Source: Acidimicrobiia bacterium (GTDB lineage Bacteria > Actinomycetota > Acidimicrobiia > Spongiisociales > UBA5794). From it: a stretch of 27,271 nucleotides of DNA. Positions 9,322 to 26,871 of this stretch are shown here, piece after piece. Made by a program: the position numbers and the translations under genes. The stretch spans positions 1 to 27,271 of the forward strand of contig JBFFFX010000001.1 in the NCBI GenBank assembly GCA_041557775.1. Reading direction: 5' to 3'. The notes under the pieces were generated by a model that was not told the origin of the DNA, ran no database searches, and saw nothing but the letters and a program-made list of their open reading frames with translations. How positions within the stretch are numbered: position 1 is the first letter of the stretch; each line of letters starts with the position of its first letter.

Positions 9322-9810
9322 TCAGTCCGCGGACCGTGTGACGTCGGCCACGGTGGCCTCGAGCCAGGACAGCGCTGCGCCCGCGTCCATCGTCACGGAC
9401 ACGCCGTGCGCTCCACCGCCGATCGAGAGCACATCGAGATCGGCGACCGCGGCATCCGCGACCACCGGCAGCGGCCGGCGACAGCCGAAGGGGGTGATGG
9501 TGCCTCGCTCGTAGCCCGTGACGTTCTGCGCCTCGTCGGCATCGGGCAGCGAGAGGCGCCGCTCGCCGAGGACGGTGCGGAGCTTCGGCCAGTCGATCGC
9601 CCTGTCGCCCGGCACCAGCACGAGGACGTGATCGCCCGCCCTCCGTCGCACCACGAGGGTCTTGATCAATGCGCGGACCGGAACCCCGCGAAGTGCGGCT
9701 GCCTCCTCCGCGCTCCGGGCACGGCCGGTACGCACGACGCGGTGCTCCAGGCCGGATGCGGCGACGGCCCGCAGCGCCGGCGTGTCGGGCGCTGCACTGT
9801 CAGCCGTCAG
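9322..9810 (-). CDS. YbaK/EbsC (aminoacyl-tRNA deacylase) family protein; start uncertain, CTG proposed
   Basis: IKTLVV (conserved Lys), LVLVPGD, A..VTGYERGTITPFG, SIGGGAHG. There is no in-frame ATG or GTG near the family N-terminus; CTG at 9810 has AGGAG 7 nt upstream. Confidence 0.8.
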   Translation of the reverse strand: MTADSAAPDTPALRAVAASGLEHRVVRTGRARSAEEAAALRGVPVRALIKTLVVRRRAGDHVLVLVPGDRAIDWPKLRTVLGERRLSLPDADEAQNVTGYERGTITPFGCRRPLPVVADAAVADLDVLSIGGGAHGVSVTMDAGAALSWLEATVADVTRSAD

Positions 9811-11368: not shown

Positions 11369-11495
11369 GGCGGGCAACTCCTGATGTCGGCGCATCGAGC
11401 CTACAGGTGACGACCGCCTCGGGTCCGGCGTGGGAGCAGTGGGTCTCTCTCGGCCGGCACGCGATAATCGGTGGGTGACCGAGGGAGGGTCTGTG

Positions 11496-12794
11496 GTGCA
11501 TCACGCCGTCGAGACGTTGCCGACCGAGGAGCTGCGCACACTCCAGGACCAGCGCCTGGCCGCGACCATGGCGCGTGTCCGTGGCGCGGATGCGCCGTTT
11601 TGGCGCGAGAAGCTGGCCGGATTCCCGGAGGATGGCTCGCTCGACCGGATCGCCGAGCTTCCGTTCACGACGAAGCCCGAATTCCGTAGTGCCTACCCGT
11701 ACGGCATGTTCGCCGTCGACACCGATGCGGTGGTCCGCGTGCACGCCTCGTCGGGCACTTCGGGCAAGCCGACCATCGTCGGCTACACGGCGGGCGACGT
11801 GGCGATCTTTGCCGAGGTGAACGCCCGCGCCCTCGCCATGGCGGGGGCACGTCCCGACGACATCGTCCACGTCGCCTACGGGTACGGGTTGTTCACCGGC
11901 GGGCTCGGGCTCCACTACGGCGTCGAAGCCGTGGGGGCGGTGGCGGTGCCGGCGTCGGGCGGCAACGTGGGCTTCCAGATCGGGCTGCTCGCCGATCTGG
12001 GCGCAACGGGTCTGGCCTGTACGCCCTCGTTCTCGTTGCTGCTGGCGGAGCGTGCCGCCGAGGCGGGGTTGCTGGATGGGATTCGCCTTCGGTGGGGGAT
12101 TCACGGTGCGGAGCCCTGGTCGGAAGGTCTTCGGGAGAAGATCGAGGCTGCCTGGGGCGGCGGGTTCGATGCGTGCGACATCTACGGGCTCTCCGAGATC
12201 ATCGGCCCGGGGGTGGCTCAAGAATGCCGGGAGAACAAGGGCGGCATGCACGTCATGGAGGATCATTTCTATCCCGAGATCGTCGAACCCCTGTCCGGCG
12301 AGCCGGTGCCAGATGGTGAATCGGGAGAGCTCGTGCTGACGACCTTGACCAAGGAGGCACAGCCCGTGATCCGGTACCGCACCGGAGACATCACGCGCTT
12401 CCTCCCGGGCGGATGTCCCTGCGGGCGGACGTTGCGGCGCATCGCACGGCTGGAGGGTCGGGCGGACGACATGCTCATCATCCGCGGCATCAATGTGTAT
12501 CCGCGGGAGATCGAAACCGTCTTGATGTCCGACCCCGATGTGGGCGGGCAGTTCGCCATCGTGGTGGACCGTCGCGGCACGCTGGTCGAGGTAGAGGCGC
12601 GCGTGGAGCTCGCCGATGCCGACCGGGCGCCGCTCCGACAGACCATCGCACACCGGCTCCAGCGGCAGCTCGCCGCGACCGTGCGGCTCCGAATCACCGT
12701 CTCGGTCGGGGATCCCGGAAGCATCCCACGCGCCGAGTTGGGCAAGGCGAAGCGAGTCTTCGATCGCTATGACGACGCGGACCCGGTGAGCTGA
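11496..12794 (+). CDS. paaK: Phenylacetate--CoA ligase family protein
   Basis: YPYGMFAV..VVRVHASSGTSGKPT, YGYGLFTGGLG, GAEPWSE, DIYGLSE, EDHFYPEI, TTLTKEAQPVIRYRTGD, GRADDMLIIRGINVYP. GGAGG RBS 7 nt before GTG 11496. The true substrate is not established. Confidence 0.85.
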   Translation: MHHAVETLPTEELRTLQDQRLAATMARVRGADAPFWREKLAGFPEDGSLDRIAELPFTTKPEFRSAYPYGMFAVDTDAVVRVHASSGTSGKPTIVGYTAGDVAIFAEVNARALAMAGARPDDIVHVAYGYGLFTGGLGLHYGVEAVGAVAVPASGGNVGFQIGLLADLGATGLACTPSFSLLLAERAAEAGLLDGIRLRWGIHGAEPWSEGLREKIEAAWGGGFDACDIYGLSEIIGPGVAQECRENKGGMHVMEDHFYPEIVEPLSGEPVPDGESGELVLTTLTKEAQPVIRYRTGDITRFLPGGCPCGRTLRRIARLEGRADDMLIIRGINVYPREIETVLMSDPDVGGQFAIVVDRRGTLVEVEARVELADADRAPLRQTIAHRLQRQLAATVRLRITVSVGDPGSIPRAELGKAKRVFDRYDDADPVS

Positions 12795-13082
12795 GACCAT
12801 ATTCAAGGACGCACCTGTCGGCAGTTGGGCCCTGCCGTTCGGGGCAACGTCCCTCGCTGCCACTTCGGACTGGAAGTTCGCGAGAGAGGTGTGTGCGGCA
12901 AGAACGAGGTCGTGTGTTTACATTACGGAGGTCGCGACCGAGGCGGCAGGCATCGCTCCGGCCGATACGTCCGCACCACCACCGACCGAAGGGCCGGCGG
13001 AGAGCGAGACGACGGACAGGATCTCGATGAGCCGGTACGGTCGAGACCGTATGCCATTGCGCAGCCGACGAGGAGGAGAGAG

Positions 13083-14588
13083 ATGCACCGAAACCCGCAT
13101 GGCGGACTGTGGCGTCCGTTGCTGATGCTGACGATGGTGTTCGCGTTGATCGCCGCGGCGTGCGGCGGCGATGCGGAGCCCGAAGGCGAGATCGTGATCG
13201 CCATCGGCTCGGAGCCGTCGACGCTCGACCCGCATCTGCGCGACGACGGTGGCGAGCGCGCCGTCAACGACAACATCTATGAGACGTTGCTCTCGCGTGA
13301 CTCGAACGGTGAGCTGCAGCCGCTCCTGGCGGCCGCGCTGCCCACCCAGCTCGATGACACCACGTGGGAAGTCGAGATTCGTGACGGCATATCCTTCACG
13401 AACGGGAATGCCCTCGACGCGGCTGCAGTGAAGGCCTCCTTCGACCGGCTGGTCGGTCTCGGTGACGAATCGGAGCAATCCGGGTTCTTCGGTTCCATCG
13501 CCGGTGTCGAGGTCGTCGACGACATGACCGTGCGGTTCACGACCGACGGCCCCGATCCCATCCTGCCGGCGAAGCTGTACTGGCTGAAGGTCATCGACGC
13601 GTCCGAGGTCGGCGAGGGGTACGACGAGAACCCCGTCGGCACGGGCCCGTACCAGTTCGTGTCGTGGAACCGAGGCAGCAGCGTCGTCCTCGAGGCCAAC
13701 CCGGGCTACTGGGGTGATGCGCCTGCGATCCAGCAGGTGACGTTCCGCTTCATCGAGGAATCGGGCACACGCTTGTCCGGTCTGCTCTCCGGAGAGTTCG
13801 ATCTGATCACGAACCTGTCGCCTGACGACGCCGACACGGCGCCGAAGTCGGTCAGCGTGGTCGGACTCGAGCATCCGATCATGATTCTGAGCACGATCGA
13901 CGGTCCGACCGCCGATGTCCGTGTGCGCCAGGCCATGAACTATGCCATCGACAAGGAAGCCCTGGCCGATTCGCTGTACGGCGGCGCCGCCGCGGTGGAT
14001 CAATGCCAGATCCTCAGCTCGACCGTGTTCGGGTTCAACGCCGACCTCGATGCGTACGACTACGACCCCGATCGTGCTCGTGAGCTGCTTGCGGACGCCG
14101 GCGCCGAAGGCGCCACGATCGACCTGGTCGGCGAGTCCGGCCGCTGGCTCAAGGACCGCGAGTTGATCGAGGCCGTGGCCAACTACTGGGACGACGTGGG
14201 TCTCGACACCAACGTCCAGATCTTCGAGTTCGGTGAGTACCTGAACCGGCTCTTCGATCGGGAGACGAGGGCCTCGGCGATCTTCGTGTCGAGCTCCAAC
14301 GACATCCTGGATCCGAGCCGCCAGCTCGGGACGTATTACTCGCCGGAGGGCATCGGCTCGTCGAACCAGGACGCCGAGATGCTGGACTGGGTCACCCGGG
14401 CCGCGGTCGAGACGGACGTCGACGCCCGCGAGGACCTGTACCTCCAGGCGACGGAGCGGGCCTGCGACGACGCCTACTTCGCGTTCTTGTTGAACATCGA
14501 AGACAGCTACGGGACGAGCGAGCGCCTCGATTGGGCGCCGCGGGTCGACGCCAAGCTGCTGGTGAGCGAGATGTCGCTCTCCGGCTGA
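13083..14588 (+). CDS. ABC transporter family-5 (Dpp/Opp-like) substrate-binding lipoprotein
   Basis: GAGGAGG RBS, lipobox IAAAC, EPSTLDP, IYETL, PVGTGPYQF, DVRVRQAMNYAID. Confidence 0.92.
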   Translation: MHRNPHGGLWRPLLMLTMVFALIAAACGGDAEPEGEIVIAIGSEPSTLDPHLRDDGGERAVNDNIYETLLSRDSNGELQPLLAAALPTQLDDTTWEVEIRDGISFTNGNALDAAAVKASFDRLVGLGDESEQSGFFGSIAGVEVVDDMTVRFTTDGPDPILPAKLYWLKVIDASEVGEGYDENPVGTGPYQFVSWNRGSSVVLEANPGYWGDAPAIQQVTFRFIEESGTRLSGLLSGEFDLITNLSPDDADTAPKSVSVVGLEHPIMILSTIDGPTADVRVRQAMNYAIDKEALADSLYGGAAAVDQCQILSSTVFGFNADLDAYDYDPDRARELLADAGAEGATIDLVGESGRWLKDRELIEAVANYWDDVGLDTNVQIFEFGEYLNRLFDRETRASAIFVSSSNDILDPSRQLGTYYSPEGIGSSNQDAEMLDWVTRAAVETDVDAREDLYLQATERACDDAYFAFLLNIEDSYGTSERLDWAPRVDAKLLVSEMSLSG

Positions 14589-14606
14589 CGAAAGGCTGAA
14601 TGAAGA

Positions 14607-15527
14607 GTGGGCCGGTTTGCCCTCCAGCGGGCGCTTCAGGGCCTGGTCGTCATCGTCGGAGTGACCATCGTGGTGTTCGTGGTCACCCGGTTGATCGGCG
14701 ATCCGGTGTCCCTGATGCTCCCGCTGGAGGCGACGGCCGAGGAGCGGGCGGCGTTTGCCGCGTCCCTCGGCCTCGACCGGTCCATTCCGGTGCAGTTCTG
14801 GGACTTCGTCCGGGGTGCCGTTCGCTTCGACTTCGGGGACTCGCTGTGGCAAGGAAGACCCGCCTTCGAGATCATCCTCGAGGTGCTGCCCCGCACGGTC
14901 ATGCTGGTCCTGGCGGGTCTCGGGCTGGCCATCGTTCTGGCGGTCCCGGTCGGGATCTTCGCCGCGCTGCGTCCTGGCTCGTGGACGGATCGCAGCCTCG
15001 TGGCGGGGAGCCTGTTCGGTCTGTCGGTTCCTCAGTTCTGGCTCGGTTTGATGTTGATCTTGTTCTTCGGCGTGACGCTGCGGCTGTTGCCGACGTCGGG
15101 TTCGGGGACCTTCCGCCATCTCATCCTGCCGGCGATCACGCTGGCGCTGCCCGCCTTCGGCCGGCTGACGATGATGGTGCGCTCGTCGATGATCGATGAG
15201 TTGGAGGCCGGCTATGTGGACACCGCCCGGGCCAAGGGCATGCCGGAATGGCGGACCGTGTTCGTGCACGCGTTCCGCAACGCCTCCAACCCGGTGGTCA
15301 CCTTGGCGGGGTGGGAGCTCATCCGAGCGATCGCCGGATACTCCGTAGTCGTGGAGACCGTGTTCGCCTGGCCGGGCATCGGCTTCATGGCGATCCAGGC
15401 GATTCAGCAGCAGGATCTGATTCTGTTGCAGGCGATCGTGTTCGTGGTGGCGGTCATCGTGGTGATCGTGAACCTGCTCTTGGACTTCGCTTACAAGCTC
15501 ATCGATCCCCGGATTCAGTTCGCATGA
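14607..15527 (+). CDS. ABC importer permease (DppB/OppB-like)
   Basis: GDP in the N-terminal region, SVPQFWLG, HLILPAITL and EAA loop YVDTARAKG. Confidence 0.92.
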   Translation: MGRFALQRALQGLVVIVGVTIVVFVVTRLIGDPVSLMLPLEATAEERAAFAASLGLDRSIPVQFWDFVRGAVRFDFGDSLWQGRPAFEIILEVLPRTVMLVLAGLGLAIVLAVPVGIFAALRPGSWTDRSLVAGSLFGLSVPQFWLGLMLILFFGVTLRLLPTSGSGTFRHLILPAITLALPAFGRLTMMVRSSMIDELEAGYVDTARAKGMPEWRTVFVHAFRNASNPVVTLAGWELIRAIAGYSVVVETVFAWPGIGFMAIQAIQQQDLILLQAIVFVVAVIVVIVNLLLDFAYKLIDPRIQFA

Positions 15528-16474
15528 CCGCATCGACCGACGCCCTCGATCCGACGGCGACCCTCGACCAGGACGCCAGTCATGTGTCGGCCGGCTTCTT
15601 CGCCGACCTGTGGCGGGACAAAGCCGGATTCATCGGTTTGGCGTTTCTGGTGATGCTCGTCGTGATCGCGGTGTTCGCTCCTGTGTTCGCTCCCCACGAT
15701 CCGGCGGCGCAACAACTCACGGAGCGTCTTCAACCCCCGGCGTGGGCGGACGGCGGGACCAGCACCCACCTGCTCGGCACGGACAACCTGGGCCGGGACG
15801 TGTTGTCGCGGCTCATCTACGGTGCGCGCATCTCGATCATGGTCGGTTTCGCGGTCGTCGCCGTCGCCGGGTCCGTAGGCGTCGTGGCCGGGCTCTTCGC
15901 CGGCTACAAGGGGGGCAGGGTCGATGCCACCATCATGCGGATCGTGGACACCCAGGTCGCGTTCCCGGGTCTCCTGCTGGCGCTGATCATCCTCACGGTC
16001 GTCGGTCCCAGTGCAACCACCGTGATCATCGTGCTCTCGATCAACGGCTGGATGGTGTACGCAAGGGTCACGAGAGGCGCGGTGCTCTCCCTCAAGGAGC
16101 GTGACTACGTGGAGGCGGCGGAATTGATCGGTGCGCCGTCGCGCCGGGTGATCTTCCGCCACATCTTGCCGGGTCTCACCGCCCCGCTGCTGACCCTGCT
16201 GATCCTCGAGTTTGCCCGCATCATCCTCGCCGAGGCCGCCCTTTCGTTCCTCGGCCTTGGGATCCAGCCGCCGCAGACGTCGTGGGGTCTCGATGTCGCC
16301 ATCGGCCGCGACTACATCTTCAACTCGTGGTGGCTGGTGACCTTCCCGGGCATCGCGATCGCTTTCACGGTGCTCAGCGCCAACATGGTGGCGAGTTGGT
16401 TCAGGATCCGCACCAATCCGCTGGCTCGCGCCAAGCGGTTCGCCGCCTACAGCGTGCGCGACGGAGATGTGTGA
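15524..16474 (+). CDS. ABC importer permease (DppC/OppC-like)
   Basis: ATGA overlap with the upstream stop. HLLGTDNLGRDVLSRLIYGARISI, EAA loop YVEAAELIGA, AEAALSFLGLGIQPP. Confidence 0.92.
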   Translation: MTASTDALDPTATLDQDASHVSAGFFADLWRDKAGFIGLAFLVMLVVIAVFAPVFAPHDPAAQQLTERLQPPAWADGGTSTHLLGTDNLGRDVLSRLIYGARISIMVGFAVVAVAGSVGVVAGLFAGYKGGRVDATIMRIVDTQVAFPGLLLALIILTVVGPSATTVIIVLSINGWMVYARVTRGAVLSLKERDYVEAAELIGAPSRRVIFRHILPGLTAPLLTLLILEFARIILAEAALSFLGLGIQPPQTSWGLDVAIGRDYIFNSWWLVTFPGIAIAFTVLSANMVASWFRIRTNPLARAKRFAAYSVRDGDV

Positions 16475-17492
16475 CGTGGCCCGCACCGATGCCCCGCTTC
16501 TCGAGGTCAAGGATCTCTCCGTGTCGTTCTTCACGCCCCGGGGGACGGTGCGCGCGGTCCGTGGCGTGAACCTCGCGCTGGGCGCAGGTGAGACGCTCGG
16601 GATCGTCGGCGAGTCGGGATCGGGTAAGACCGTGACGGCGCGGGCCATCCTCGGGCTGGTCGAGCTGCCGGGGAAGATCACCGGCGGCGATGTGATGTGG
16701 AAGGGCAAGTCGGTCGTCAACGGCTCACGGGCCCGCTCCCGGGCCCGGACGATGCGCGGCAAGGAAGCGTCGATGGTGTTCCAGAATCCCATGACGTCGC
16801 TCAACCCGCTCATCTCCATCGGCGATCAGATCGGCGAAGTACTGCGACACCATCTCGGTATGAAGAAGCCGGAGGCGCGGGAGCGGGCAATCGATCTGCT
16901 CGCGATCGTGGGCATGTCGAACCCCCAACGCCGGGTCGATCAGTACCCGCACGAGTTCTCCGGCGGGATGCGGCAGCGGGCGATGATCGCCATGGCGCTG
17001 GCCTGCGAGCCGGAGTTGCTCATCGCCGACGAGCCGACGACGGCGCTGGACGTCACGATCCAGGCGCAGATCCTCGAGCTGATCGCCGACCTCCAGCAGC
17101 GGCTCGGCCTGGCGGTCATCTTGATCACGCATGACCTGGCCGTGGTCGCCGGGGTCTGCCATCGCATCGAGGTGATGTACGCCGGGCGGTTCATCGAAGA
17201 GGGCTCTGCGCGGGACATGTTTCGCCGGCCGCGCCACCCGTACACGGCAGGCCTGCTGCGCTCCACGCCGCGCCTCGACGTCATCGTGCCGCGGCTGCAT
17301 GCGATCGACGGGGCGCCGCCGGACCTGCGCCTCCCCGTCCGGGGGTGTGCCTTCCATGCCCGATGCGAATACGGCCGCGCCGAATGCTTGACCGAGGAAC
17401 CGGTCCTGTTCGGCGCACCCGGCGAGCCGTCGGTGGCGTGCCGATTCCCGCTCGACACGGCCGTCGAGTTCACAAAGGCGCCGCATGAGTGA
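16467..17492 (+). CDS. ABC importer ATP-binding subunit (DppD/OppD-like)
   Basis: GESGSGKT, YPHEFSGGMRQR, LIADEPTTALDV, ITHD, HPYT and a C-terminal Cys cluster. Alternative start at GTG 16476. Confidence 0.92.
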   Translation: MCDVARTDAPLLEVKDLSVSFFTPRGTVRAVRGVNLALGAGETLGIVGESGSGKTVTARAILGLVELPGKITGGDVMWKGKSVVNGSRARSRARTMRGKEASMVFQNPMTSLNPLISIGDQIGEVLRHHLGMKKPEARERAIDLLAIVGMSNPQRRVDQYPHEFSGGMRQRAMIAMALACEPELLIADEPTTALDVTIQAQILELIADLQQRLGLAVILITHDLAVVAGVCHRIEVMYAGRFIEEGSARDMFRRPRHPYTAGLLRSTPRLDVIVPRLHAIDGAPPDLRLPVRGCAFHARCEYGRAECLTEEPVLFGAPGEPSVACRFPLDTAVEFTKAPHE

Positions 17493-18498
17493 GCCCCTCG
17501 TCCAAGTCGCCGATCTCAGCGTCCACTTCGACATGGGCCGCAAGGGTTTCTGGGGGTCGGAACGGCAGCACCTCTCGGCCGTCGACCACATCAGCTTTGC
17601 GATTGCGCCCGGTGAGGTGCTGGGGCTCGTCGGGGAATCGGGTTCAGGAAAGACCACGACGGGTCGCGCCATCTTGCGCCGCGTCCCCGCCGCCACGGGG
17701 TCGGTGCGTTTCGACGGTGCCGACATCACCACGCTGGACGGGGAGGAGCTGCGCCGGCTGCGGCGTCACATGCAGCCCGTCCACCAGGACCCGTATGGCA
17801 GCCTCAACCCGCGGCACTCGGTCCTGCAGATCATCGCCGAGCCGCTGCTCGTCCACGGGCTGATCGACAGGATCGAGGATGCTCGCGAGGAGGTGGGTGC
17901 CTTCTTGGACATGGTGGGCATGCCGCCCGACTCGCTCGACCGCTACCCGCATGCCTTCAGCGGCGGGCAGTTGCAGCGCATCGGGATCGCCCGGGCACTG
18001 GTGCTCAAGCCGCGGTTCATCGTGGCCGACGAGCCCGTGTCGGCGCTCGACGTCTCGATCCAGGCGCAGATCGTCAACCTCATGCAGGATCTGCGGTCAG
18101 AGCTCACCCTCACCTACCTGTTCATTGCGCACGATCTCTCCGTGGTGCGCCACATCTCGGACCGGATTGCGATCATGTATGCCGGGCAGCTCGTCGAGGT
18201 CGCCGGCAAGGACGCCGTGTACGACCGGCCCGCCCACCCCTACACGCAGGCGTTGCTCTCCGCGGTGCCGATCCCGGACCCGGAGATCGAGGCGAGACGG
18301 AAGCGCGTGCGGGTCGAGGGTGAGGTGCCCAATCTGATCGATCCCCCGCCGGGATGCCGCTTTGCCTCGCGCTGTCCGTTCGTGCAGGAGAGGTGCCGCG
18401 AGGAATCGCCTGTGCTGAGGGCGATCGGTGAGGGACACGAGGCGGCATGCCACTTCGTGGAGGACATCCCGCCGATCGAGCTGGCGGCGAGGACGTGA
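17485..18498 (+). CDS. ABC importer ATP-binding subunit (DppF/OppF-like)
   Basis: GESGSGKTT, YPHAFSGGQLQR, VADEPVSALDVS, IAHDL, HPYTQALLSAVP, PPPGCRFASRCP. Confidence 0.92.
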   Translation: MSEPLVQVADLSVHFDMGRKGFWGSERQHLSAVDHISFAIAPGEVLGLVGESGSGKTTTGRAILRRVPAATGSVRFDGADITTLDGEELRRLRRHMQPVHQDPYGSLNPRHSVLQIIAEPLLVHGLIDRIEDAREEVGAFLDMVGMPPDSLDRYPHAFSGGQLQRIGIARALVLKPRFIVADEPVSALDVSIQAQIVNLMQDLRSELTLTYLFIAHDLSVVRHISDRIAIMYAGQLVEVAGKDAVYDRPAHPYTQALLSAVPIPDPEIEARRKRVRVEGEVPNLIDPPPGCRFASRCPFVQERCREESPVLRAIGEGHEAACHFVEDIPPIELAART

Positions 18499-19268
18499 TG
18501 GATCTCGGACTGGCCGGCAAGCGGGCGCTCGTGCTCGGGTCGTCGTCGGGGATGGGGCGCGCCATTGCCGGGGGACTCGCCGCCGAAGGAGCGCGGGTTG
18601 TCGTGACTGGTCGGGACGAGGAGCGCCTGAGCGCGGTCGCAGGGTCTATGGGCGCCGCCGGGTCGATCGCGGCCGACCTGACGACCGACGATGGTGCGGC
18701 GCGCGTGGTCGCCGGAGCGCTCGACGCGCTGGGCGGACTCGACATCTTCGTGGGGAACACGGGGGGTGGGAAGCCAGGGGGCCTGGTCGATGGAGGCTTC
18801 GAGGCAGTGGAGGGCGGCTATCGCGCGATGCTGCTGCCGCAGCTGCGTGCGGCGCAGGCGGCGATCCCCGCCCTGCGCCGAACCGGTGACGGAAGGATGG
18901 TGTTCCTCACGGCCCGTTCGGTTCTGGAGGCCTCGCCCGATCTGGCGCTGTCGTCCGTGTTCCGCAGTGGCGTCGCCGCTGCGGCTCGATCCCTCGCGAT
19001 CGAGCTGGCACCGGACGTCACCGTCAACGTGGTCGTGCCCGGACAATTCGACACGGGAGCACTCGCCCGCTTCGAGGCCGCCCGGGCGCGCGCCGAGGAC
19101 CGCACGGTCGAGGAGGTGCGGGAGGACCACGTCGCCGCGATTCCCATGGGTCGTTTGGGCCGCGCCGAGGAGATCGCCGATCTGGTGCTCTTCTTGGTCT
19201 CCGCAAGGGCGGGATACATCACCGGAGCGACGTTCCGGATCGACGGCGGCCTCACCCGCGGCTTCTGA
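18498..19268 (+). CDS. Short-chain dehydrogenase/reductase, atypical active site
   Basis: MDLGLAGKRALVLGSSSGMG Rossmann motif, GNTGG, VNVVVPG, IPMGRLGRAEEIA, YITG...IDGG. The YxxxK position reads SSVFR. Confidence 0.88.
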   Translation: MDLGLAGKRALVLGSSSGMGRAIAGGLAAEGARVVVTGRDEERLSAVAGSMGAAGSIAADLTTDDGAARVVAGALDALGGLDIFVGNTGGGKPGGLVDGGFEAVEGGYRAMLLPQLRAAQAAIPALRRTGDGRMVFLTARSVLEASPDLALSSVFRSGVAAAARSLAIELAPDVTVNVVVPGQFDTGALARFEAARARAEDRTVEEVREDHVAAIPMGRLGRAEEIADLVLFLVSARAGYITGATFRIDGGLTRGF

Positions 19269-19280
19269 GCGGCGCGGACG

Positions 19281-20438
19281 GTGGGAGCAGAGACGGACCC
19301 GGGGAGCACCGCCCCCCGCCGCCCGCAGCGCGTCGCCATCATCGCCGTCACCCTGACGTACGTTGCCGTGACGGTCGGCGAATCGATCCTGGCTCCGGTG
19401 TTGCCGCTGGCGTCTGCAGATCTTGGATTCGGTGAGTCCGAAGCCGGCCGGCTGCTGGGTTTGCTCTCCCTCTCGGCGGGGGCCGGCAACCTCGCAGGCG
19501 GAATCGTGCTGGGCAGGTTCGGCCCGCGCCTCTCCTCCCTCGTCGGCGTCGGGACGACCACGCTCGGGGCGGGCCTTGCGGCAACCGGTGCGGGCGCGGG
19601 CCGATTCACCGTGGCGCACGTGCTGATGGGTCTCGGCGCCGGGATCTTCTTCGCCGGGGGTATCTACTCGATCGGGGTGCTCGCCGGCCCGGGACGGCGC
19701 GGGCGGGCGATGGGCCTCTACGGCATCGCGTACTCGCTTGCGCTCGCGGCCGCCGCCGGCATGGTTGCGGTGGTCGGAGCGAACGCGTGGCGGGGTGTCT
19801 TCGCCACTGCCGCAGGCCTCGGCCTCGTCGCCTTCATCGCCGTTGCCGTCGCCGGATTACCACCGCGACCGGAGAGGTCCGAGCGCGCACCGGGCCGCGG
19901 ACTCCGGTTGTTGGGCGTACCCGTTGCGGTCGGCGCAGTGGCCGCCGTCGCCCAATTCGGCCTCGCGGCGTTCCTCCCGACGTTTGCCGTCGACCGGTGG
20001 GCGGTCACCGCATCCACCGCCGCCATGATCCTGTTCGCCGGACGGGTCCTCTCCATCCCGGGAAAGGCTTGGGCCGGGCGCCTTGCCGACCGCTACGGCG
20101 CCATGGGGGCGGCCCGCCGCGTGACGTGGACCCTGCTGGCCAGCGGGATCGCCTGGCTGGTCGTGCCCGTGTCGGCGGTGGGGGCGGCGGCGGCCGCGAT
20201 CTTCGCCGCGGCGGCCGGGGCGATGTTCCCGGTCGCCAACGTCGTGGCAGTGGAGCGGTTCGGCGGCCGCGGCGGGCTGCTCGGGGTCTTCCGCTCGATG
20301 CAGATGGCCGTGGCCGGTGTCTCGGCATGGCTCGTCGGTCTGGGAGCGACGGCTGCGGGCCTGCGCAACGTGCTGTTGGCGGGCGTGGTGGCGCTGGCGG
20401 CGTTGCTCGCGGTCCGCCCGGAGCGGGAAGGAAGTTGA
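19281..20438 (+). CDS. Major facilitator superfamily transporter
   Basis: About 12 hydrophobic segments; motif A-like GIVLGRFGPR and GRLADRYG in the two halves. Confidence 0.85.
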   Translation: MGAETDPGSTAPRRPQRVAIIAVTLTYVAVTVGESILAPVLPLASADLGFGESEAGRLLGLLSLSAGAGNLAGGIVLGRFGPRLSSLVGVGTTTLGAGLAATGAGAGRFTVAHVLMGLGAGIFFAGGIYSIGVLAGPGRRGRAMGLYGIAYSLALAAAAGMVAVVGANAWRGVFATAAGLGLVAFIAVAVAGLPPRPERSERAPGRGLRLLGVPVAVGAVAAVAQFGLAAFLPTFAVDRWAVTASTAAMILFAGRVLSIPGKAWAGRLADRYGAMGAARRVTWTLLASGIAWLVVPVSAVGAAAAAIFAAAAGAMFPVANVVAVERFGGRGGLLGVFRSMQMAVAGVSAWLVGLGATAAGLRNVLLAGVVALAALLAVRPEREGS

Positions 20439-20445
20439 GCGACGC

Positions 20446-21282
20446 TCAGACGTCGGGCTCGTAGAAGGTTTCGGTCGAGGACCACATCTCCTCGGTCCGG
20501 TCGAGCCGGGCGGTCGCCGCGTCGTGGTCCTGGCGAGCGACTTCCATCACGAGCATCTCGGCAAGCGCCACTGCGGGGATCGAGCTGTCGAAGGGCCCGA
20601 TCGCCGGGACATCGACGGCGCACCAGAGGTGGGCGATCTGTGCGAGGGGGGAGAGCGGGCCGTCCGTGATGGCGACGATGGTGCCTGCGGACTCGGCGAC
20701 GACCTGCGCCGCGCGAACCACGGCCGTTCGATACCTGGGGAAGTCCACCACCAGGAGGACGTCTTGGGCGCCGATGTCGGCGAGATCGCGTCCCAGGTTG
20801 CGCTCCTCCAGCAAGCGCACGCCGGTGCGCACCATGCTCAACCCGCTCACCAGGGCATGGGCACCGGCCCGGGACGTCTCGCCGGACAGCACCCAGACGC
20901 GACCGGCCTCGAGGAGCGGTTTGGCGAGATCGGCGATGTGTCCGCCCTCGATTGCGGTGAAGACGGAATCGATCGACTGCTCGATCGCGGTGCGCGCATC
21001 CGACTCCGCACCGTGGCGGATTCGCACGCTGGGCCGGCTGAGCCGGAGTGCCAGGTCGCGCCGAATGTGCTCTTGCAGCTCGGGGTACCCGTCGAATCCG
21101 AGTTTGGTGGCGAAGCGGACGATCGACGGGCGGCTCGTACCCACCTCGAGGGCGAGGTCGGAGACCGTGCCGAAGGCGAGCAGGGTGGGGTCGGCCACGA
21201 CAGCCTCGGCGATGCGCCGCTCGGTGGGTGTCAGCCGAGTTCCGGCGGCGGCGATGAGCTGGGAGAGGGACGTTGGTGACAT
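20446..21282 (-). CDS. MurR/RpiR family transcriptional regulator (HTH + SIS)
   Basis: LTPTERRIAE...GTSRPSIVRFATKLGFDGYPELQ HTH. SIS domain with DVLLVVDFPRY and VAITDGPLSPLA. Confidence 0.92.
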   Translation of the reverse strand: MSPTSLSQLIAAAGTRLTPTERRIAEAVVADPTLLAFGTVSDLALEVGTSRPSIVRFATKLGFDGYPELQEHIRRDLALRLSRPSVRIRHGAESDARTAIEQSIDSVFTAIEGGHIADLAKPLLEAGRVWVLSGETSRAGAHALVSGLSMVRTGVRLLEERNLGRDLADIGAQDVLLVVDFPRYRTAVVRAAQVVAESAGTIVAITDGPLSPLAQIAHLWCAVDVPAIGPFDSSIPAVALAEMLVMEVARQDHDAATARLDRTEEMWSSTETFYEPDV

Positions 21283-21297
21283 AGGTCGTGAGCACTA

Positions 21298-21304
21298 TGT
21301 TACA
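21298..21304. promoter_or_regulatory. Candidate RpiR operator (TGT-T-ACA dyad)
   Basis: TGTTACA lies in the only AT-rich patch of the divergent intergenic region, 4 nt upstream of the predicted -35 box and 15 nt from the rpiR start. Confidence 0.3.
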
Positions 21305-21308
21305 AGCA

Positions 21309-21337
21309 TTGCTCCGTCCTGTGCAGGGGTGTACGCT
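21309..21337 (+). promoter_or_regulatory. Sigma70/SigA-type promoter for the aminomutase operon
   Basis: TTGCTC (21309-21314), 17-nt spacer, TACGCT (21332-21337). GGAGGT RBS ahead of ATG 21372. Confidence 0.5.
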
Positions 21338-21371
21338 GGCCGGTGGCGACGTCGGTTTGGAGGTAGTCGCG

Positions 21372-22817
21372 ATGGGCAGAGCGAAGTACGTACCCTCGGC
21401 GCGCGAGCAGGCGTTCCTCGACACGGTCGAGAACCCGAAGTACGACCGGCAGATCATCAACGGTCTGAAGATGTTTCTCGAACACCGCGAGCCGGACGAC
21501 ATGCGGGGTTTCTACAGCGACGCCGAGCTCGCGGTCCTCGCCGAACTGAAGGGCACGGAGCGCGACGTCGAGGCGCGCATGCCCGTGAAGGTCACCCGCC
21601 ACTACTTCGAACTGGCCAAGCACAGCAAGCCGCTCCAGCGGCTCGTGAAGGCGAGTCCCGATGAGACGATCGATCTCGCCGGCGCCGAAGATCCCGGCTA
21701 TCAGATGGACTACAGCCCCGTCGAGGGGCTGCTGCACAAGTACGAGATGGGACTCATGTACGTCATCTCGACGTGCTCGGCGCATTGCCGCTTCTGCTAC
21801 CGCGAGGAGCTGATCGCCCGCAAGGAAGTGGAGCGCGCCGACGGAACCGTCGCTCCCAAGGGCCTTGCCCAGGTCTTGGAGGTCACCGACTACATCAAGG
21901 CGCACAACGCCATCGTGGCCGCGAACGGCGGGCTCCATCCCGAATCGGGACGCGAGAAGCTTCGTGAGATCCTGCTCTCCGGAGGCGACCCGATGGTGCT
22001 GCCCAACAGCAAGATCGCCGCGTGGTTCGCTGCGCTCGCCGAAGCGGGGATCGAGTCGATTCGCCTCGGCACCAAGGAGATGGCGTTCCACCCCGATCGC
22101 TTCGACGACGCCTTCCTCGCCATGCTGGACAACTTCCACGCCGCCTACCCCGAGGTCGGGTTCCGGCTGATGATCCACTTCAACCACCCGGACGAGTTCC
22201 TGTTGAAGGACGGCGACGGCAACTACGTCGAGAACGACAACGGGACGTTGAAGTGGCACCCGGCGACGAGGCGCGCGATGAACGCCGTTGCGGGACGCGG
22301 CTGGATCAGCGTCGAGAACCAGGCGCCGATCATCAAAGGCATCAACGACGATCCCGATGCGCTCCGGATCATGCAGCGCGCCCTCAAGCGTGTGGGCGTC
22401 GAGAACCACTACTTCTTCTGCGGCAGGGACATCGTTGCCTACCGGGCCTTCAACGTGCCGATCGAGACCGCGTGGCACATCCTCAACGAGTCGCAGAAGG
22501 GGCTCTCCGGGGTGGAGAACCATGCCCGGCTCTCGATCACGCACTACAAGGGGAAGACCGAGGTCGCTGCGGTGACCAACGAGCCGATCCCCGGTGTGCC
22601 CGGGACCGAGAACGGCGTGCTGATCTTCAAGATCTTGCGCAACGCCGCGGATGCGAAGGACCGGGGCAAGGTCTGCATCGTGGGGCGCAACCCGGAGGCG
22701 ATCTGGTTCGACGACTACGCCGATCGGGTGGTCTACGACGAGGCAGGACTCTACGACTACGACCGAGTCACGTACGCACGCGAGGTGCCGGTGAGCATCG
22801 GGGTCGCCGGCCGATGA
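21372..22817 (+). CDS. KamA-family radical-SAM/PLP 2,3-aminomutase, probably not lysine-specific
   Basis: DYSPVEGLLHKY, CSAHCRFCYR (CxxxCxxC), ILLSGGDP, IRLGTK, HFNHPDE, NQAPIIKGINDD, LSG..., GKTEV (putative PLP lysine). 481 aa from ATG 21372. Confidence 0.88.
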   Translation: MGRAKYVPSAREQAFLDTVENPKYDRQIINGLKMFLEHREPDDMRGFYSDAELAVLAELKGTERDVEARMPVKVTRHYFELAKHSKPLQRLVKASPDETIDLAGAEDPGYQMDYSPVEGLLHKYEMGLMYVISTCSAHCRFCYREELIARKEVERADGTVAPKGLAQVLEVTDYIKAHNAIVAANGGLHPESGREKLREILLSGGDPMVLPNSKIAAWFAALAEAGIESIRLGTKEMAFHPDRFDDAFLAMLDNFHAAYPEVGFRLMIHFNHPDEFLLKDGDGNYVENDNGTLKWHPATRRAMNAVAGRGWISVENQAPIIKGINDDPDALRIMQRALKRVGVENHYFFCGRDIVAYRAFNVPIETAWHILNESQKGLSGVENHARLSITHYKGKTEVAAVTNEPIPGVPGTENGVLIFKILRNAADAKDRGKVCIVGRNPEAIWFDDYADRVVYDEAGLYDYDRVTYAREVPVSIGVAGR

Positions 22818-22872: not shown

Positions 22873-23583
22873 ATGATCGACAAACGAGTCGGTAGCCCGG
22901 CGGAGGCAGTAGCCGACATCCCAGATGGCGCCACAGTCATGATCGGCGGCTTCGGAGAAGCGGGCAGCCCCATCGAGCTGATCCACGCGCTCATCGACCA
23001 GGGCGCCACCGGCCTCACCGTGGTCAACAACAACACCGGTAGCGGCGAGGTCGGCCTGGCCGCGCTGATCAAGGCCGAGCGCGTGGCCAAGATGATTTGC
23101 TCGTTCCCGCGCACCGCCAACTCGACCGTCTTCCCCGAGCTGTATCGCGCCGGGAAGACGGAGCTGGAGCTCGTCCCCCAAGGCACGCTCGCCGAGCGGA
23201 TCCGCGCCGGAGGCGCCGGCATCCCGGCGTTCTTCACCGCGACCTCGGTGGGCACGCCGCTCCAGGGGGCCAAGGAGGTGCGTCGCTTCGGTGAGCGGGA
23301 CTACGTGATGGAGCACGGACTCACCGCCGACTACGCCCTCATCAAGTGCGCCCGGTCTGATCGCTACGGCAACCTGATCTACAACAAGACCGCCCGTAAC
23401 TTCAGTCCCGTGATGGCGACTGCGGCGGCGATCACGATCGTGCAGACCCGCGAGGTCGTCGAACCCGGCGACATCGATCCGGAGACGGTCGTGACACCGG
23501 GCATCTTCGTCCATCGCCTCGTGACCGTGTCCAACCCCCTGATCGAGTCCGAGCTGGTGGCAGCGGGGGCGACGTACCCATGA
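22873..23583 (+). CDS. pcaI: 3-oxoadipate (3-oxoacid) CoA-transferase subunit A
   Basis: DGATVMIGGFGEAGSP, NNNTGSGEVGLAAL, CSFPR...VFPELYRAGK.ELELVPQGTLAERIRAGG, GNLIY.KTARNF.PVMA, TPGIFV; closely matches Pseudomonas PcaI as I recall it. GGAGGT RBS 6 nt before ATG 22873. Confidence 0.85.
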   Translation: MIDKRVGSPAEAVADIPDGATVMIGGFGEAGSPIELIHALIDQGATGLTVVNNNTGSGEVGLAALIKAERVAKMICSFPRTANSTVFPELYRAGKTELELVPQGTLAERIRAGGAGIPAFFTATSVGTPLQGAKEVRRFGERDYVMEHGLTADYALIKCARSDRYGNLIYNKTARNFSPVMATAAAITIVQTREVVEPGDIDPETVVTPGIFVHRLVTVSNPLIESELVAAGATYP

Positions 23584-24242
23584 CCAGCACCTCGACCACG
23601 ATCGGCTGGACCCGCGACGAGATGGCGCAGCGCGCGGCCCTCGACATCCCCAACGGGGCCTACGTGAACCTCGGTATCGGCATTCCCGAGCGCGTGGCCA
23701 AGTACGTGCCCGCCGGTCGCGAGGTGATCTACCACACAGAGAACGGCCTGCTCGGCATGGGCCCGGCCCCCGAGACGGGACACGGTGACCCGGAGCTGAT
23801 CAATGCAGGGAAGCGCCAGGTGACCGCAATCCCGGGGGCGGCGTTCTTCCATCATGCCGACAGCTTCGTGATGATTCGCGGGGGCCACATCGACCTCTGC
23901 GTGCTCGGTGCCATGCAGGTCGCCCAGAACGGCGACCTCGCCAACTGGTCCACAGGTGCGACGGATGCGATCCCGGCGGTCGGCGGCGCGATGGATCTCG
24001 TCGCCGGCGTGCGCACGATTCACGTCATCACCCAGCACACCACCAAGACCGGCGAGCCGAAGCTGGTCGAGTCATGTACGTACCCGCTGACCGGACCGGG
24101 TGTCGTCGACCGGGTCTACACGGATCTCGCCGTCATGGACGTAGGATCGGGCGGTTTCCATGTCCGGGAGCTGGCACCCAGAGTGACCTTCGACTACCTC
24201 CAGGAGCGCACTGCCGGTGCGCTCGTCCCGAGGGGGAGATGA
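23580..24242 (+). CDS. pcaJ: 3-oxoadipate (3-oxoacid) CoA-transferase subunit B
   Basis: ATGA overlap with pcaI. GAYVNLGIG, HTENG (catalytic Glu), LINAGK, FFHHADSF, GDLANW.TG...IPAVGGAMDL, CTYPLTG, YTDLAV. Confidence 0.85.
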   Translation: MTSTSTTIGWTRDEMAQRAALDIPNGAYVNLGIGIPERVAKYVPAGREVIYHTENGLLGMGPAPETGHGDPELINAGKRQVTAIPGAAFFHHADSFVMIRGGHIDLCVLGAMQVAQNGDLANWSTGATDAIPAVGGAMDLVAGVRTIHVITQHTTKTGEPKLVESCTYPLTGPGVVDRVYTDLAVMDVGSGGFHVRELAPRVTFDYLQERTAGALVPRGR

Positions 24243-25567
24243 TGACCGCGCAACCGCAGTTTCACGTCTCGAAGAGCGAAGCCCTGTACGACCGGGCGAA
24301 GAAGGTGTTGCCCGGCGGCGTGAGCAGGAACACCGTGCTGCGCTCGCCGCACCCCGTGTACGTCGATCACGCCGAGGGCTGTCGTGTCACCGACATCGAA
24401 GGCGTCACACGTATCGACTTTGCGAACAACATGGCCTCGCTGATCCACGGCCATGCCCATCCGGTGGTCATGGATGCGGTCGCCGCCCAGCTTCGCAATG
24501 GCACCGGCTTCACGCTGGCCACGGAGATCGAAGTGCGGTACGCGGAGCATCTCGTGGCCCGGAGCGCGAGCTTCGAGAAGGTCCGCTTCGTCAACTCGGG
24601 CACCGAGGCCGTGATGGCGGCGCTCAAGGCCGCCCGAGCCTTCACGGGCCGCGCCAAGATCGCCAAGGTCGAGGGTGCCTACCACGGCGGGTACGACTAC
24701 GCCGAGGTCAGCCAGACGTCGACGCCGGCCAATTGGGGCAAGGACGACAGCCCGGTCAGCGTACCGGTGGCCTACGGCACGCCTCCCAAGGCCCTCGAAG
24801 ACGTCGTCGTCATCCCGTTCAACGACCCGGCCAAGGCGCGATCGATCCTCGACCGGCATCGAGGCGAGATCGCGTGCGTCCTCATCGACCCGCTCCCGCA
24901 CCGCGTCGGTCTCCTCCCGGCGACGCCCGCGTTTGTCGAGATGCTGGGGGAATGGACCACCGAGGATGAGGCATTGCTGATCTTCGATGAGGTCATCACG
25001 TTCCGATCCGAGTACGGCGGGGCGCAGGAGTGGTACGACGTGCATCCCGACCTCACCGCGATGGGGAAGATCGTCGGCGGCGGCTTCCCGGTCGGTGCGC
25101 TGGCGGGCAGGAGCGCGGTGATGGATGTGATGAACCCGCTGGCATCGCAGGTTCGCTTCCCGCACTCGGGCACGTTCTCCGCGAATCCGATCACGATGAC
25201 GGCAGGGCTCACGGCGATGGAACTGTTCAACCGCCCGGCCGTCCACCGAGTGAACGCGCTCGCCGCCCGGGCCCGTCGCGGTATCGAGGACGCCATCGCC
25301 GAGGCCGGTGTCGCGGCCTGCGTCTCCGGCGGCGGATCGATGCTCCGGGTCCACATGAAGCCGGAGCTGCCGGCGAATTACCGCGAAGCGTTCTCGTCGC
25401 CGGAGGAGAAGCGGCGACTCGACATCATGCTCGACCACCTCTTCGACAGCGGCTTCCTCATGATCAACACGTGCTCGCTCACGACTTCGACCGTCAGGGG
25501 TGAGGCGGAGGTGGACGGGCTGGTGGAGGCCATGCGGCACGGATTCCGCAAGATCGCCCGGCTGTAG
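24239..25567 (+). CDS. Class III PLP aminotransferase, GSAM-like fold, beta-amino-acid transaminase type
   Basis: ATGA overlap with pcaJ. PGGVSR, RFVNSGTEA, EGAYHG, FDEVITFR, DLTAMGK (PLP lysine), HSGTFSANP. Lacks the HemL PGGVNSPVRAF motif. Confidence 0.85.
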   Translation: MMTAQPQFHVSKSEALYDRAKKVLPGGVSRNTVLRSPHPVYVDHAEGCRVTDIEGVTRIDFANNMASLIHGHAHPVVMDAVAAQLRNGTGFTLATEIEVRYAEHLVARSASFEKVRFVNSGTEAVMAALKAARAFTGRAKIAKVEGAYHGGYDYAEVSQTSTPANWGKDDSPVSVPVAYGTPPKALEDVVVIPFNDPAKARSILDRHRGEIACVLIDPLPHRVGLLPATPAFVEMLGEWTTEDEALLIFDEVITFRSEYGGAQEWYDVHPDLTAMGKIVGGGFPVGALAGRSAVMDVMNPLASQVRFPHSGTFSANPITMTAGLTAMELFNRPAVHRVNALAARARRGIEDAIAEAGVAACVSGGGSMLRVHMKPELPANYREAFSSPEEKRRLDIMLDHLFDSGFLMINTCSLTTSTVRGEAEVDGLVEAMRHGFRKIARL

Positions 25568-25599: not shown

Positions 25600-26871
25600 A
25601 TGTCACCATTGCCCGACCATCTCTTGCCCGACACCGCTCGCGTCGACGAGAACGGGCAGCTCGTCATCGGTGGCTGCAACACGCTCGAGCTGGCCGACCG
25701 CTTCGGAACACCGTTGTTCGTGTACGACGTCGCCCACCTGCGCGCCCGGTGCCGGGAAGCTCGGGCGGCTTTTGGCGATGGCGCGATCTATGCCGCCAAG
25801 GCCTTCATGTGCAAGGCCATGGTGCGCATCGTGGCGGAAGAAGGGCTGCGGATGGACGTCGCCACCGGGGGAGAGCTGCACACGGCCCTCGCCGCCGGCT
25901 TCCCCCCGGACCGGCTCGTGATGCACGGCAACAACAAGACGGTCGCCGAGCTGCAGCGCGCCGTCGACGCCGGCGTGGGCCGCATCGTGGTGGACAGCTT
26001 CGACGAGTTGGACCGCCTCGAGGCGCTGGCTGCGGAGCGCACCGAGCCGATTCCGATCCTGCTGCGCATCACGCCGGGCGTCGAGGCCCACACCCACGAG
26101 TACACCGCCACCGGGCACGACGACACGAAGTTCGGGTTCACCGTGTCCTCCGGACTGGCGACACAAGCGGTCGAGCGCACGCAGCGGATCGCCGGCCTCG
26201 ATCTGCACGGCGTGCACGCCCACATCGGCTCGCAGGTGTTCCGCGTCGAGTCGTTCGCCGAGGCGCTGGCCGTCGTGGCTGCGTTCGCCGAGCCGTACGG
26301 ATTCGCAGAGATCACCACCGGCGGCGGTCTCGGCGTCGCGTATGTGGTGGGGGAGCAGGCGCCGAGCCTCACCGAGTGGGCGGAGGTACTCGGAGAAGCC
26401 AAGCGTCGCGCCGGACTCACGGCACGACTTTCGGTGGAGCCGGGGCGAGCCATCGTTGCCACCGCTGCGGTCACGCTGTACACGGTCGGCACCATCAAGC
26501 CGCTCCCCGGCATCCGCACGTATGTCGCCGTCGATGGCGGGATGAGCGACAACCCTCGGCCGGTGCTGTACGACAGCGGATACGAGACGTTCCTGCCCCG
26601 GGCCGTCGCGGCCGAGCGGGACGCGACGATCCGCCTCGTCGGCAAGCACTGCGAGTCCGGCGACGTGCTGGTCCGGAGCGGCCTGGTGCCGTCCGACATG
26701 CGGATCGGCGACATCATCGCCACGCCGGTCACGGGCGCCTACGGCCATTCCATGGGCTCGAACTACAACAAGGTCCCGCGCCCCGCGGTGGTGTTCGTCG
26801 AGGCCGGCGAAGCCCGCCTCGTCGTCCGTCGCGAGACGTACGACGATCTCCTTGCCACCGACGTGGGCTGA
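25600..26871 (+). CDS. lysA: Diaminopimelate decarboxylase
   Basis: FGTPLFVYD, YAAKAF (PLP lysine), HGNNK, KFG, HAHIGSQ, GGGLG, VEPGR, VDGGMSDN.RP.LY, GKHCESGD, GAY...M.SNYN. Confidence 0.93.
   Translation: MSPLPDHLLPDTARVDENGQLVIGGCNTLELADRFGTPLFVYDVAHLRARCREARAAFGDGAIYAAKAFMCKAMVRIVAEEGLRMDVATGGELHTALAAGFPPDRLVMHGNNKTVAELQRAVDAGVGRIVVDSFDELDRLEALAAERTEPIPILLRITPGVEAHTHEYTATGHDDTKFGFTVSSGLATQAVERTQRIAGLDLHGVHAHIGSQVFRVESFAEALAVVAAFAEPYGFAEITTGGGLGVAYVVGEQAPSLTEWAEVLGEAKRRAGLTARLSVEPGRAIVATAAVTLYTVGTIKPLPGIRTYVAVDGGMSDNPRPVLYDSGYETFLPRAVAAERDATIRLVGKHCESGDVLVRSGLVPSDMRIGDIIATPVTGAYGHSMGSNYNKVPRPAVVFVEAGEARLVVRRETYDDLLATDVG

Follow-up and report, generated by a model that had tools for sequence, protein, structure and literature searches.

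Which amino acid does an enzyme related to lysine 2,3-aminomutase (LAM) act on when the two aspartates that hold the lysine side chain are missing? The question is raised by P0001, a protein of 481 residues encoded in a 27,271-nucleotide stretch of DNA from an Acidimicrobiia bacterium (contig JBFFFX010000001.1, positions 1 to 27,271; hereafter the window). Lysine, glutamate, and arginine 2,3-aminomutases and EpmB are the only characterised members of the KamA family; they fall into one clade of our tree, and P0001 lies in the large unexplored remainder. We propose that its substrate is an acidic amino acid, most likely 2-aminoadipate, which would be converted through 3-aminoadipate and 3-oxoadipate to succinyl-CoA and acetyl-CoA. 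We give this reading a probability of about 0.45. The gene of this S-adenosylmethionine (SAM)- and pyridoxal 5'-phosphate (PLP)-type enzyme and its key sites are as follows.

21372–22817, + strand: KamA-family radical SAM/PLP aminomutase gene, P0001, 481 aa (open reading frame and translation)
21774–21803, + strand: cluster motif C135-x3-C139-x2-C142, then Y143-R144 (three cysteines invariant in the alignment; hhalign)
21978–21989, + strand: SAM-binding SGGD motif, S203-G204-G205-D206 (G204 and G205 invariant, D206 at least 90% conserved, 49 sequences)
22425–22430, + strand: Arg352 (AGG) at the site of LAM Asp293, then the family-invariant Asp353 (phmmer, MAFFT, family hidden Markov model (HMM), hhalign)
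22527–22556, + strand: loop R386-L-S-I-T390-H-Y-K393-G-K395, with Thr390 at the site of LAM Asp330 (hhalign and MAFFT); G394 and K395 invariant

Fold, cofactor motifs, and side-chain pocket of P0001

P0001 is a very divergent member of the KamA family. All of its matches to the NCBIfam models of the family score below the respective cut-offs: 88.2 bits on TIGR00238 (KamA family; cut-off 199.2), 69.9 on TIGR03820 (lysine 2,3-aminomutase KamA/AblA; 525.4), 74.1 on TIGR04368 (glutamate 2,3-aminomutase; 650), 80.6 on TIGR04468 (arginine 2,3-aminomutase; 600), and 80.0 on TIGR03821 (EpmB; 369). The Pfam Radical_SAM model gives 20.3 bits against a cut-off of 29.5. The numbering used here fits the ATG start at 21372, which is shared by homologues of 481–484 aa. 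In this translation, codons 22425–22427 (AGG) and 22554–22556 (AAG) encode Arg352 and Lys395, codons 22539–22550 encode T-H-Y-K, and codons 22548–22556 encode K393-G394-K395.

The only sequence relative of P0001 in the PDB is 2A5H, the LAM of Clostridium subterminale. The AlphaFold2 model of P0001 (mean predicted local distance difference test score, pLDDT, 92.5; predicted template modelling score, pTM, 0.90) has the same entry as its top Foldseek match (E 2e-17). VIA-align superimposes the two over 311 residues with a root-mean-square deviation of 2.2 Å and a Z score of 34.0, and the next fold has a Z score of 14. The structural support is for the global fold only, and the assignment of Arg352 and Asp353 to their sites comes from sequence and profile alignments.

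The cofactor and α-carboxylate motifs are complete. Hhalign aligns CSAHCRFCYR of P0001 to CSMYCRHCTR, which places R144 at LAM Arg134, the α-carboxylate binder; by hhalign and the family HMM, R144 corresponds to Arg134 and K395 to the PLP lysine, Lys337, both having been proposed as retained in a first-pass annotation of the window. In an alignment of 49 diverse relatives, C135, C139, C142, G204, G205, G394, and K395 are invariant. P0001 is predicted from these motifs to be a functional radical-SAM, PLP-dependent amino-acid 2,3-aminomutase that catalyses a 2,3-amino shift.

In LAM, Asp293 and Asp330 bind the ε-ammonium group of lysine. The LAM segments used for the first comparison are correct: the HMMER alignment to 2A5H gives C125/C129/C132, R134, YQCD293, and VVD330APGGGGK337, and fixes the numbering with LSLGLEHF following D293. 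Four alignment approaches agree in placing Arg352 at the Asp293 site, as first claimed. Phmmer aligns ...VGVENHYFF349 with ...VRPYYIY290 and therefore, by ungapped extension, sets R352 on D293. MAFFT with 54 full-length relatives and L-INS-i with 21 sequences, including named references, put R352 in the aspartate column of LAM, the EF-P β-lysylation enzyme EpmB, and the arginine 2,3-aminomutase BlsG. The family HMM, searched against the PDB, has the consensus 'FqcRp' over 'YQCDL' of 2A5H. Hhalign of the P0001 clade against the characterised clade pairs VENHYFFCGRDIVAYR with the LAM-side segment at a probability of 100. In all four approaches, the region spanning NQ..NDD through the HF/AF motif aligns without gaps.

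At the second site, D330 has T390 as its counterpart in both the MAFFT and the hhalign alignments, with two residues missing ahead of K393-G394-K395. RLSITHYKGK holds no acidic residue, in line with the earlier observation, and the loop is two residues shorter than that of LAM. CGRD is found in 200 of 200 family members and LSITHYK in 195 of 200, the members being 75–90% identical and drawn from many phyla; therefore, the pocket residues are not there by chance. Judged from the alignments, P0001 has a cationic, acid-free side-chain pocket.

What P0001 and LAM share, at about 23% identity, is the fold, CxxxCxxC, SGGD, the α-carboxylate arginine (Arg144/Arg134), and the PLP lysine (Lys395/Lys337). 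What separates them, in addition to Asp293 to Arg352, Asp330 to Thr390, and the shorter loop, is GINDD in place of GVNDC, the absence of the C-terminal CxCxxC (zinc site) of LAM from the P0001 sequence, four insertions (about 8 residues behind the cluster motif, then 16, 6, and 19 residues), and a different C-terminal domain. The states at the two sites in reference proteins are listed below.

AblA/KamA (L094, L093): site 293 Asp; site 330 Asp
E. coli EpmB (L096): site 293 Asp; site 330 region with a longer loop, Glu near the site
BlsG (L095): site 293 Asp; site 330 region with a short loop, Thr at the aligned position
Glutamate-aminomutase-like, five Actinomycetota proteins (near-equivalogs: 618–638 bits on TIGR04368, cut-off 650; 424 on the LAM model): site 293 Lys (FQAKP); site 330 Ser (VSAPGGLGK)
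P0001: site 293 Arg; site 330 Thr, short loop

The Arg/Thr pair of P0001 fits neither the lysine signature (Asp/Asp) nor the glutamate-like one (Lys/Ser), as the first-pass annotation had stated. The glutamate-like proteins resemble P0001 in having a cationic residue in place of Asp293 and a small polar residue in place of Asp330, and their lysine may, by analogy, offer a precedent for pairing an acidic substrate with a cationic site 293. However, they are nested in the LAM/BlsG clade, and P0001, with its shortened loop, is far away. BlsG has a short loop ahead of the PLP lysine (VLTTKIGK), as does P0001; BlsG and EpmB, although KamA-family proteins as well, keep Asp at site 293 and belong to the characterised clade. 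The five glutamate-like proteins (L099–L103, from Actinomycetota genomes G192, G139, G166, G069, and G283) have Ser at site 330, whereas the C. difficile glutamate 2,3-aminomutase of Ruzicka and Frey (2007) reportedly carries a Lys/Asn pair. No glutamate aminomutase above the TIGR04368 cut-off was found in two clostridial records or 400 Actinomycetota genomes (best 637.5 bits against 650).

The meaning of the arginine is clearer in the context of the family. In a maximum-likelihood tree of 57 KamA-family proteins, a sample with a bias since the best matches to P0001 supplied it, LAM, EpmB, BlsG, and the glutamate-like enzymes form a single clade (support 100/100) with Asp or Lys at site 293. 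P0001 lies outside it, apart from the validated lysine 2,3-aminomutases, in another deep clade (100/100, 27 rows), where Arg is found throughout. In the same biased sample, 42 of the 57 proteins have Arg at site 293, including most of the other uncharacterised lineages. The charge swap first claimed is thus not specific to P0001: Arg is a clade-wide feature and the common state outside the characterised clade, which calls for caution in deducing substrate charge from site 293.

The relatives with Arg at this site have varied gene contexts. P0126 (L005/L006) is encoded after succinyl-CoA-synthetase (sucCD)-like genes, the gene of P0237 (L113/L114) overlaps a pyrroline-5-carboxylate-reductase (proC)-like gene, P0128 and P0121 stand alone, and P0219 is in an archaeal locus. 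Since Arg is found in uncharacterised clades with unrelated gene contexts, Arg352 alone does not define the substrate; it is compatible with an acidic substrate and not diagnostic of one. Arg352 as a stand-alone marker of aminoadipate was rejected, as P0126, P0128, P0136, P0121, P0219, P0223, and P0237 lack the gene cassette described below. The partners of P0126 and P0237 may mark further aminomutase functions.

The proteins that come with the cassette differ from their cassette-free sisters (FQCR[ELP], MSTE.GK) at C350-G351, D353, and T390-H391-Y392-K393, with a Glu lost and a Lys and a His gained beside the PLP lysine. The residue-level map of the sites, which is new here, names Arg352, Asp353, and Thr390–Lys393 as targets for mutation.

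The gene cassette and the proposed route

The aminomutase gene is accompanied by a conserved set of genes. A relative of P0001 is encoded in 574 stretches of a collection in which each species has a single genome; the counts below refer to the best 80 loci.

20446–21282, − strand: RpiR/MurR-family regulator (HTH_6 and SIS; Pfam, NCBIfam), divergent from the aminomutase gene; 68 of 80 loci
22873–23583, + strand: CoA-transferase family I subunit A (PcaI/ScoA; TIGR02429, 326.9 bits, cut-off 128.5; NCBIfam models do not tell PcaIJ from ScoAB); 75 of 80 loci
23580–24242, + strand: CoA-transferase subunit B (PcaJ/ScoB, with the same ambiguity; TIGR02428, 295.5 bits, cut-off 243.55); 73 of 80 loci
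24239–25567, + strand: class III aminotransferase, group of glutamate-1-semialdehyde aminomutase (GSAM)-like proteins and β-transaminases (Pfam Aminotran_3; HemL models below cut-off); 70 of 80 loci

Start and stop codons overlap among the genes that follow the aminomutase gene, the start of subunit B overlapping the stop of subunit A. The best PDB match of subunit A is ScoA (3CDK). The PDB relatives of the aminotransferase are 6K8H, ForI, GSAMs, and the β-transaminases 2YKU, 6IZ9, and 4AO9, and we propose from these similarities that it is a β-amino acid transaminase. The cassette occurs in Acidimicrobiia, Chloroflexia, Gammaproteobacteria, Planctomycetota, Acidobacteriota, and others, and its genes are co-linear or, in Woeseiaceae and Lysobacterales, arranged as a divergent operon.

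At 21 of the 80 loci the cassette includes a thiolase. The ones tested, from three lineages, reach 657, 616, and 627 bits against TIGR02430, the equivalog model of PcaF (cut-off 597). The window has no thiolase; its own genome (G000, a 72%-complete metagenome-assembled genome, MAG) contains a PcaF-like copy truncated where a contig ends (420 bits, 264 positions), and in each of the two Acidimicrobiia genomes closest to it a PcaF-grade thiolase is encoded outside the cassette. No aromatic or paa genes were recognised near that of G001.

The PcaIJ-type CoA-transferase and PcaF-grade thiolase partners suggest, independently of the pocket, that the substrate is acidic. The claim that the enzyme is tuned to an anionic side chain is therefore retained in part: the CoA-transferase and thiolase partners point to an acid, whereas Arg352 itself is not diagnostic. 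2-Aminoadipate is isosteric with lysine, its distal carboxylate sitting at the position of the ε-amine. In the proposed route, the cationic pocket would bind this carboxylate, and the aminomutase would convert L-2-aminoadipate to 3-aminoadipate. The class III (β-)transaminase, presumably co-transcribed, would yield 3-oxoadipate, which the PcaIJ-type CoA-transferase would convert to 3-oxoadipyl-CoA with succinyl-CoA as the donor. A PcaF-type thiolase, encoded in the cassette of many relatives and elsewhere in the genomes of this lineage, would then cleave 3-oxoadipyl-CoA to succinyl-CoA and acetyl-CoA, and the divergent RpiR-type regulator would control the cassette.

The second half of this route would correspond to the lower β-ketoadipate pathway (PcaIJ 3-oxoadipate CoA-transferase and PcaF thiolase): the CoA-transferase subunits belong to the pcaI/scoA and pcaJ/scoB subfamilies, and thiolases above the PcaF cut-off occur in the cassettes of relatives. 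In contrast to that pathway, the loci examined showed no genes for aromatic ring cleavage, and the 3-oxoacid would come from an amino acid by way of an aminomutase and a transaminase. The route also resembles the kamA-yodPQRST operon of B. subtilis and clostridial lysine fermentation (KamA, KamDE, Kdd, Kce, Kat), in which an aminomutase likewise comes first, steps of the CoA-transferase and thiolase type come last, and a β-amino compound is the substrate of a class III aminotransferase (PMC6522883, which mentions KamA and YodT; PMC3149608). The cassette differs from the lysine systems in its non-lysine-type aminomutase and in having no β-lysine acetyltransferase or deacetylase, B12-dependent 5,6-aminomutase, or Kce.

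A literature search on 3-aminoadipate metabolism, aminoadipate aminomutase, and KamA-like families found nothing relevant. We tentatively suggest, at somewhat less than even odds, that P0001 founds a family of 2-aminoadipate 2,3-aminomutases and that the cassette encodes an undescribed decarboxylation-free route from lysine/aminoadipate catabolism into the lower β-ketoadipate pathway, which horizontal transfer appears to have carried to marine and sediment bacteria in many phyla. If so, the radical-SAM aminomutases would gain a fourth substrate class, 3-aminoadipate would be a new metabolite as a pathway intermediate, and lysine-derived 2-aminoadipate could reach central metabolism with its carbon conserved, a prospect also relevant to adipate-type bioproduction.

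One carrier is in culture: Mesorhizobium sp. 113-3-3, which offers a ready experimental system. Its plasmid MesoLj113b2 (L108, 9986–14837) encodes a 70%-identical aminomutase (9986–11416), annotated as 'hypothetical protein', that keeps CSAHCRFCYRE, HYFFCGRD, and LSITHYKGK. The gene is followed by those of a ferredoxin (FdxA), an aminotransferase of the same type (60% identity), and a non-orthologous CoA_trans pair; therefore, the three functions stay together despite the replacement of a component.

Weighing the substrate assignment

Several observations weigh against 2-aminoadipate. The score of P0001 is far below the curated KamA-family cut-off (88 against 199 bits), and the substrate of this clade is one that we infer. 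Arg is frequent at site 293 among the uncharacterised KamA clades, whose gene contexts are unrelated, and may have a generic role. The side chain of Arg exceeds that of Asp in length, which might favour a substrate below C6. The thiolase is in the cassette at only 21 of the 80 loci, and the complete cassette-bearing genomes G003 and G004 have no PcaF-grade thiolase. Saccharopine-dehydrogenase-like genes, which would supply 2-aminoadipate from lysine, are near the cassette in 2 of the 80 loci, with none in the Acidimicrobiia genomes G000–G002. One Woeseiaceae MAG with the divergent operon (L062, 3971–7675) has a saccharopine-dehydrogenase-like gene after a second-type class III aminotransferase gene and a PcaF-grade thiolase gene.

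If Arg352 had a generic structural or cofactor role, the substrate could be neutral (leucine, methionine) or zwitterionic (diaminopimelate, bound through the Arg352–Asp353 pair). The occurrence of Arg in 42 of the 57 sampled members, in many different gene contexts, is consistent with this, as is the invariant Asp353 beside it. In addition, the gene of LysA, diaminopimelate decarboxylase, follows the cassette in the window and in L011, ScoAB-type transferases act on many 3-oxoacids, and the β-keto acids of leucine and methionine also enter CoA-transferase/thiolase steps. However, the PcaF-grade thiolases suggest a dicarboxylic C6 thioester, and the LysA neighbour is confined to one lineage. 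The sister protein P0121 has Asn at the position of Asp353 and no cassette; therefore, nothing links Asp353 to an amine. We regard a generic arginine with another substrate as unlikely, though far from negligible.

A second, independently evolved glutamate 2,3-aminomutase would retain the acidic substrate and shorten it: β-glutamate would be converted to 3-oxoglutarate, then to its CoA ester, and finally to malonyl-CoA and acetyl-CoA. Proteins of the glutamate type also solve site 293 with a cationic residue (Lys in those that resemble TIGR04368), and an Arg that is longer than Asp would suit a shorter acidic side chain. 3-Oxoglutarate, on the other hand, is generally known to be highly unstable, and simpler routes exist for the catabolism of glutamate. 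The cassette thiolases meet the cut-off of the 3-oxoadipyl-CoA thiolase equivalog, and P0001 is far from the glutamate aminomutase model (74 bits against 650) and clade. We therefore consider glutamate improbable, even though multiple origins of glutamate aminomutase activity are reported (Tunckanat et al., 2022).

P0001 might also be a KamA-fold enzyme with chemistry other than a 2,3-amino shift, or one acting on a peptide- or protein-bound residue as in the pathway of EpmB. Its scores below all KamA models and the Pfam Radical_SAM cut-off, its large insertions, and its different C-terminal domain leave room for such a role. The PLP lysine, the α-carboxylate arginine, and the SAM motifs are nevertheless all invariant, and the coupling with a β-transaminase-type enzyme and a 3-oxoacid CoA-transferase fits a free β-amino acid product, which makes a different chemistry very improbable. 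An ordinary lysine 2,3-aminomutase is hardly credible: homologues of P0001 are labelled 'L-lysine 2,3-aminomutase' in some sources and pipelines (JGI), and the kamA operon of B. subtilis, to which the cassette would be analogous, also has CoA-transferase subunits and a class III aminotransferase, but both lysine-binding aspartates are gone, P0001 scores 70 bits against 525 on TIGR03820 and falls outside the 100/100 clade of LAM, EpmB, BlsG, and the glutamate-like enzymes, and no acetyltransferase or deacetylase that could protect an ε-amine is encoded in the cassette.

Flanking DNA and neighbouring genes

Two further features of the window lie on either side of the genes from aminomutase to aminotransferase.

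21283–21371, strand not assigned: divergent promoter region with candidate operator (TGTTACA at 21298–21304, TGTACG at 21330–21335; sequence and repeat scan)
25600–26871, + strand: LysA, diaminopimelate decarboxylase (TIGR01048, 447 bits, cut-off 297.9); not a member of the conserved cassette

Two GTTACA/TGTACA-like words, about 25–30 bp apart, lie within 21276–21335 of the window; in the corresponding region of L010–L086 they recur in most of 21 loci from several phyla when read by eye, and they look like a candidate operator of the regulator that moves with the cassette. An inverted repeat, GTGACATAG/CTATGTTAC, lies at 21276–21303 and begins 7 bp inside the regulator open reading frame. A CATAG/CTATG palindrome was rejected as a conserved operator, as it was not found in the other loci. 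Among the 80 loci, LysA is downstream of the cassette only here and in a 89%-identical locus (L011/L003); its adjacency as a clue to diaminopimelate was rejected, being limited to this single lineage.

Among cultured organisms, Tistrella mobilis has the CoA-transferase A subunit most similar to that of the cassette (71% identity), on plasmid pTM2 (L106, 2605–10397). Its gene lies near those of an aldehyde dehydrogenase, a PLP aminotransferase, and a protein with DUF1338, at a locus with no aminomutase. DUF1338 includes HglS, which converts 2-oxoadipate.

Upstream, positions 12825–20438 of the window encode an Opp-type peptide ATP-binding cassette (ABC) transporter (SBP_bac_5, permease, two ATPases), a short-chain dehydrogenase/reductase, and a major facilitator superfamily transporter. 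L010 and L011, the closest relatives, have this set as well; in L026 and L039 the transporter genes are in inverted order. Further upstream, at 9800–12794, are two divergent AMP-binding genes of the acyl-CoA ligase type, one with an AMP-binding_C_2 domain.

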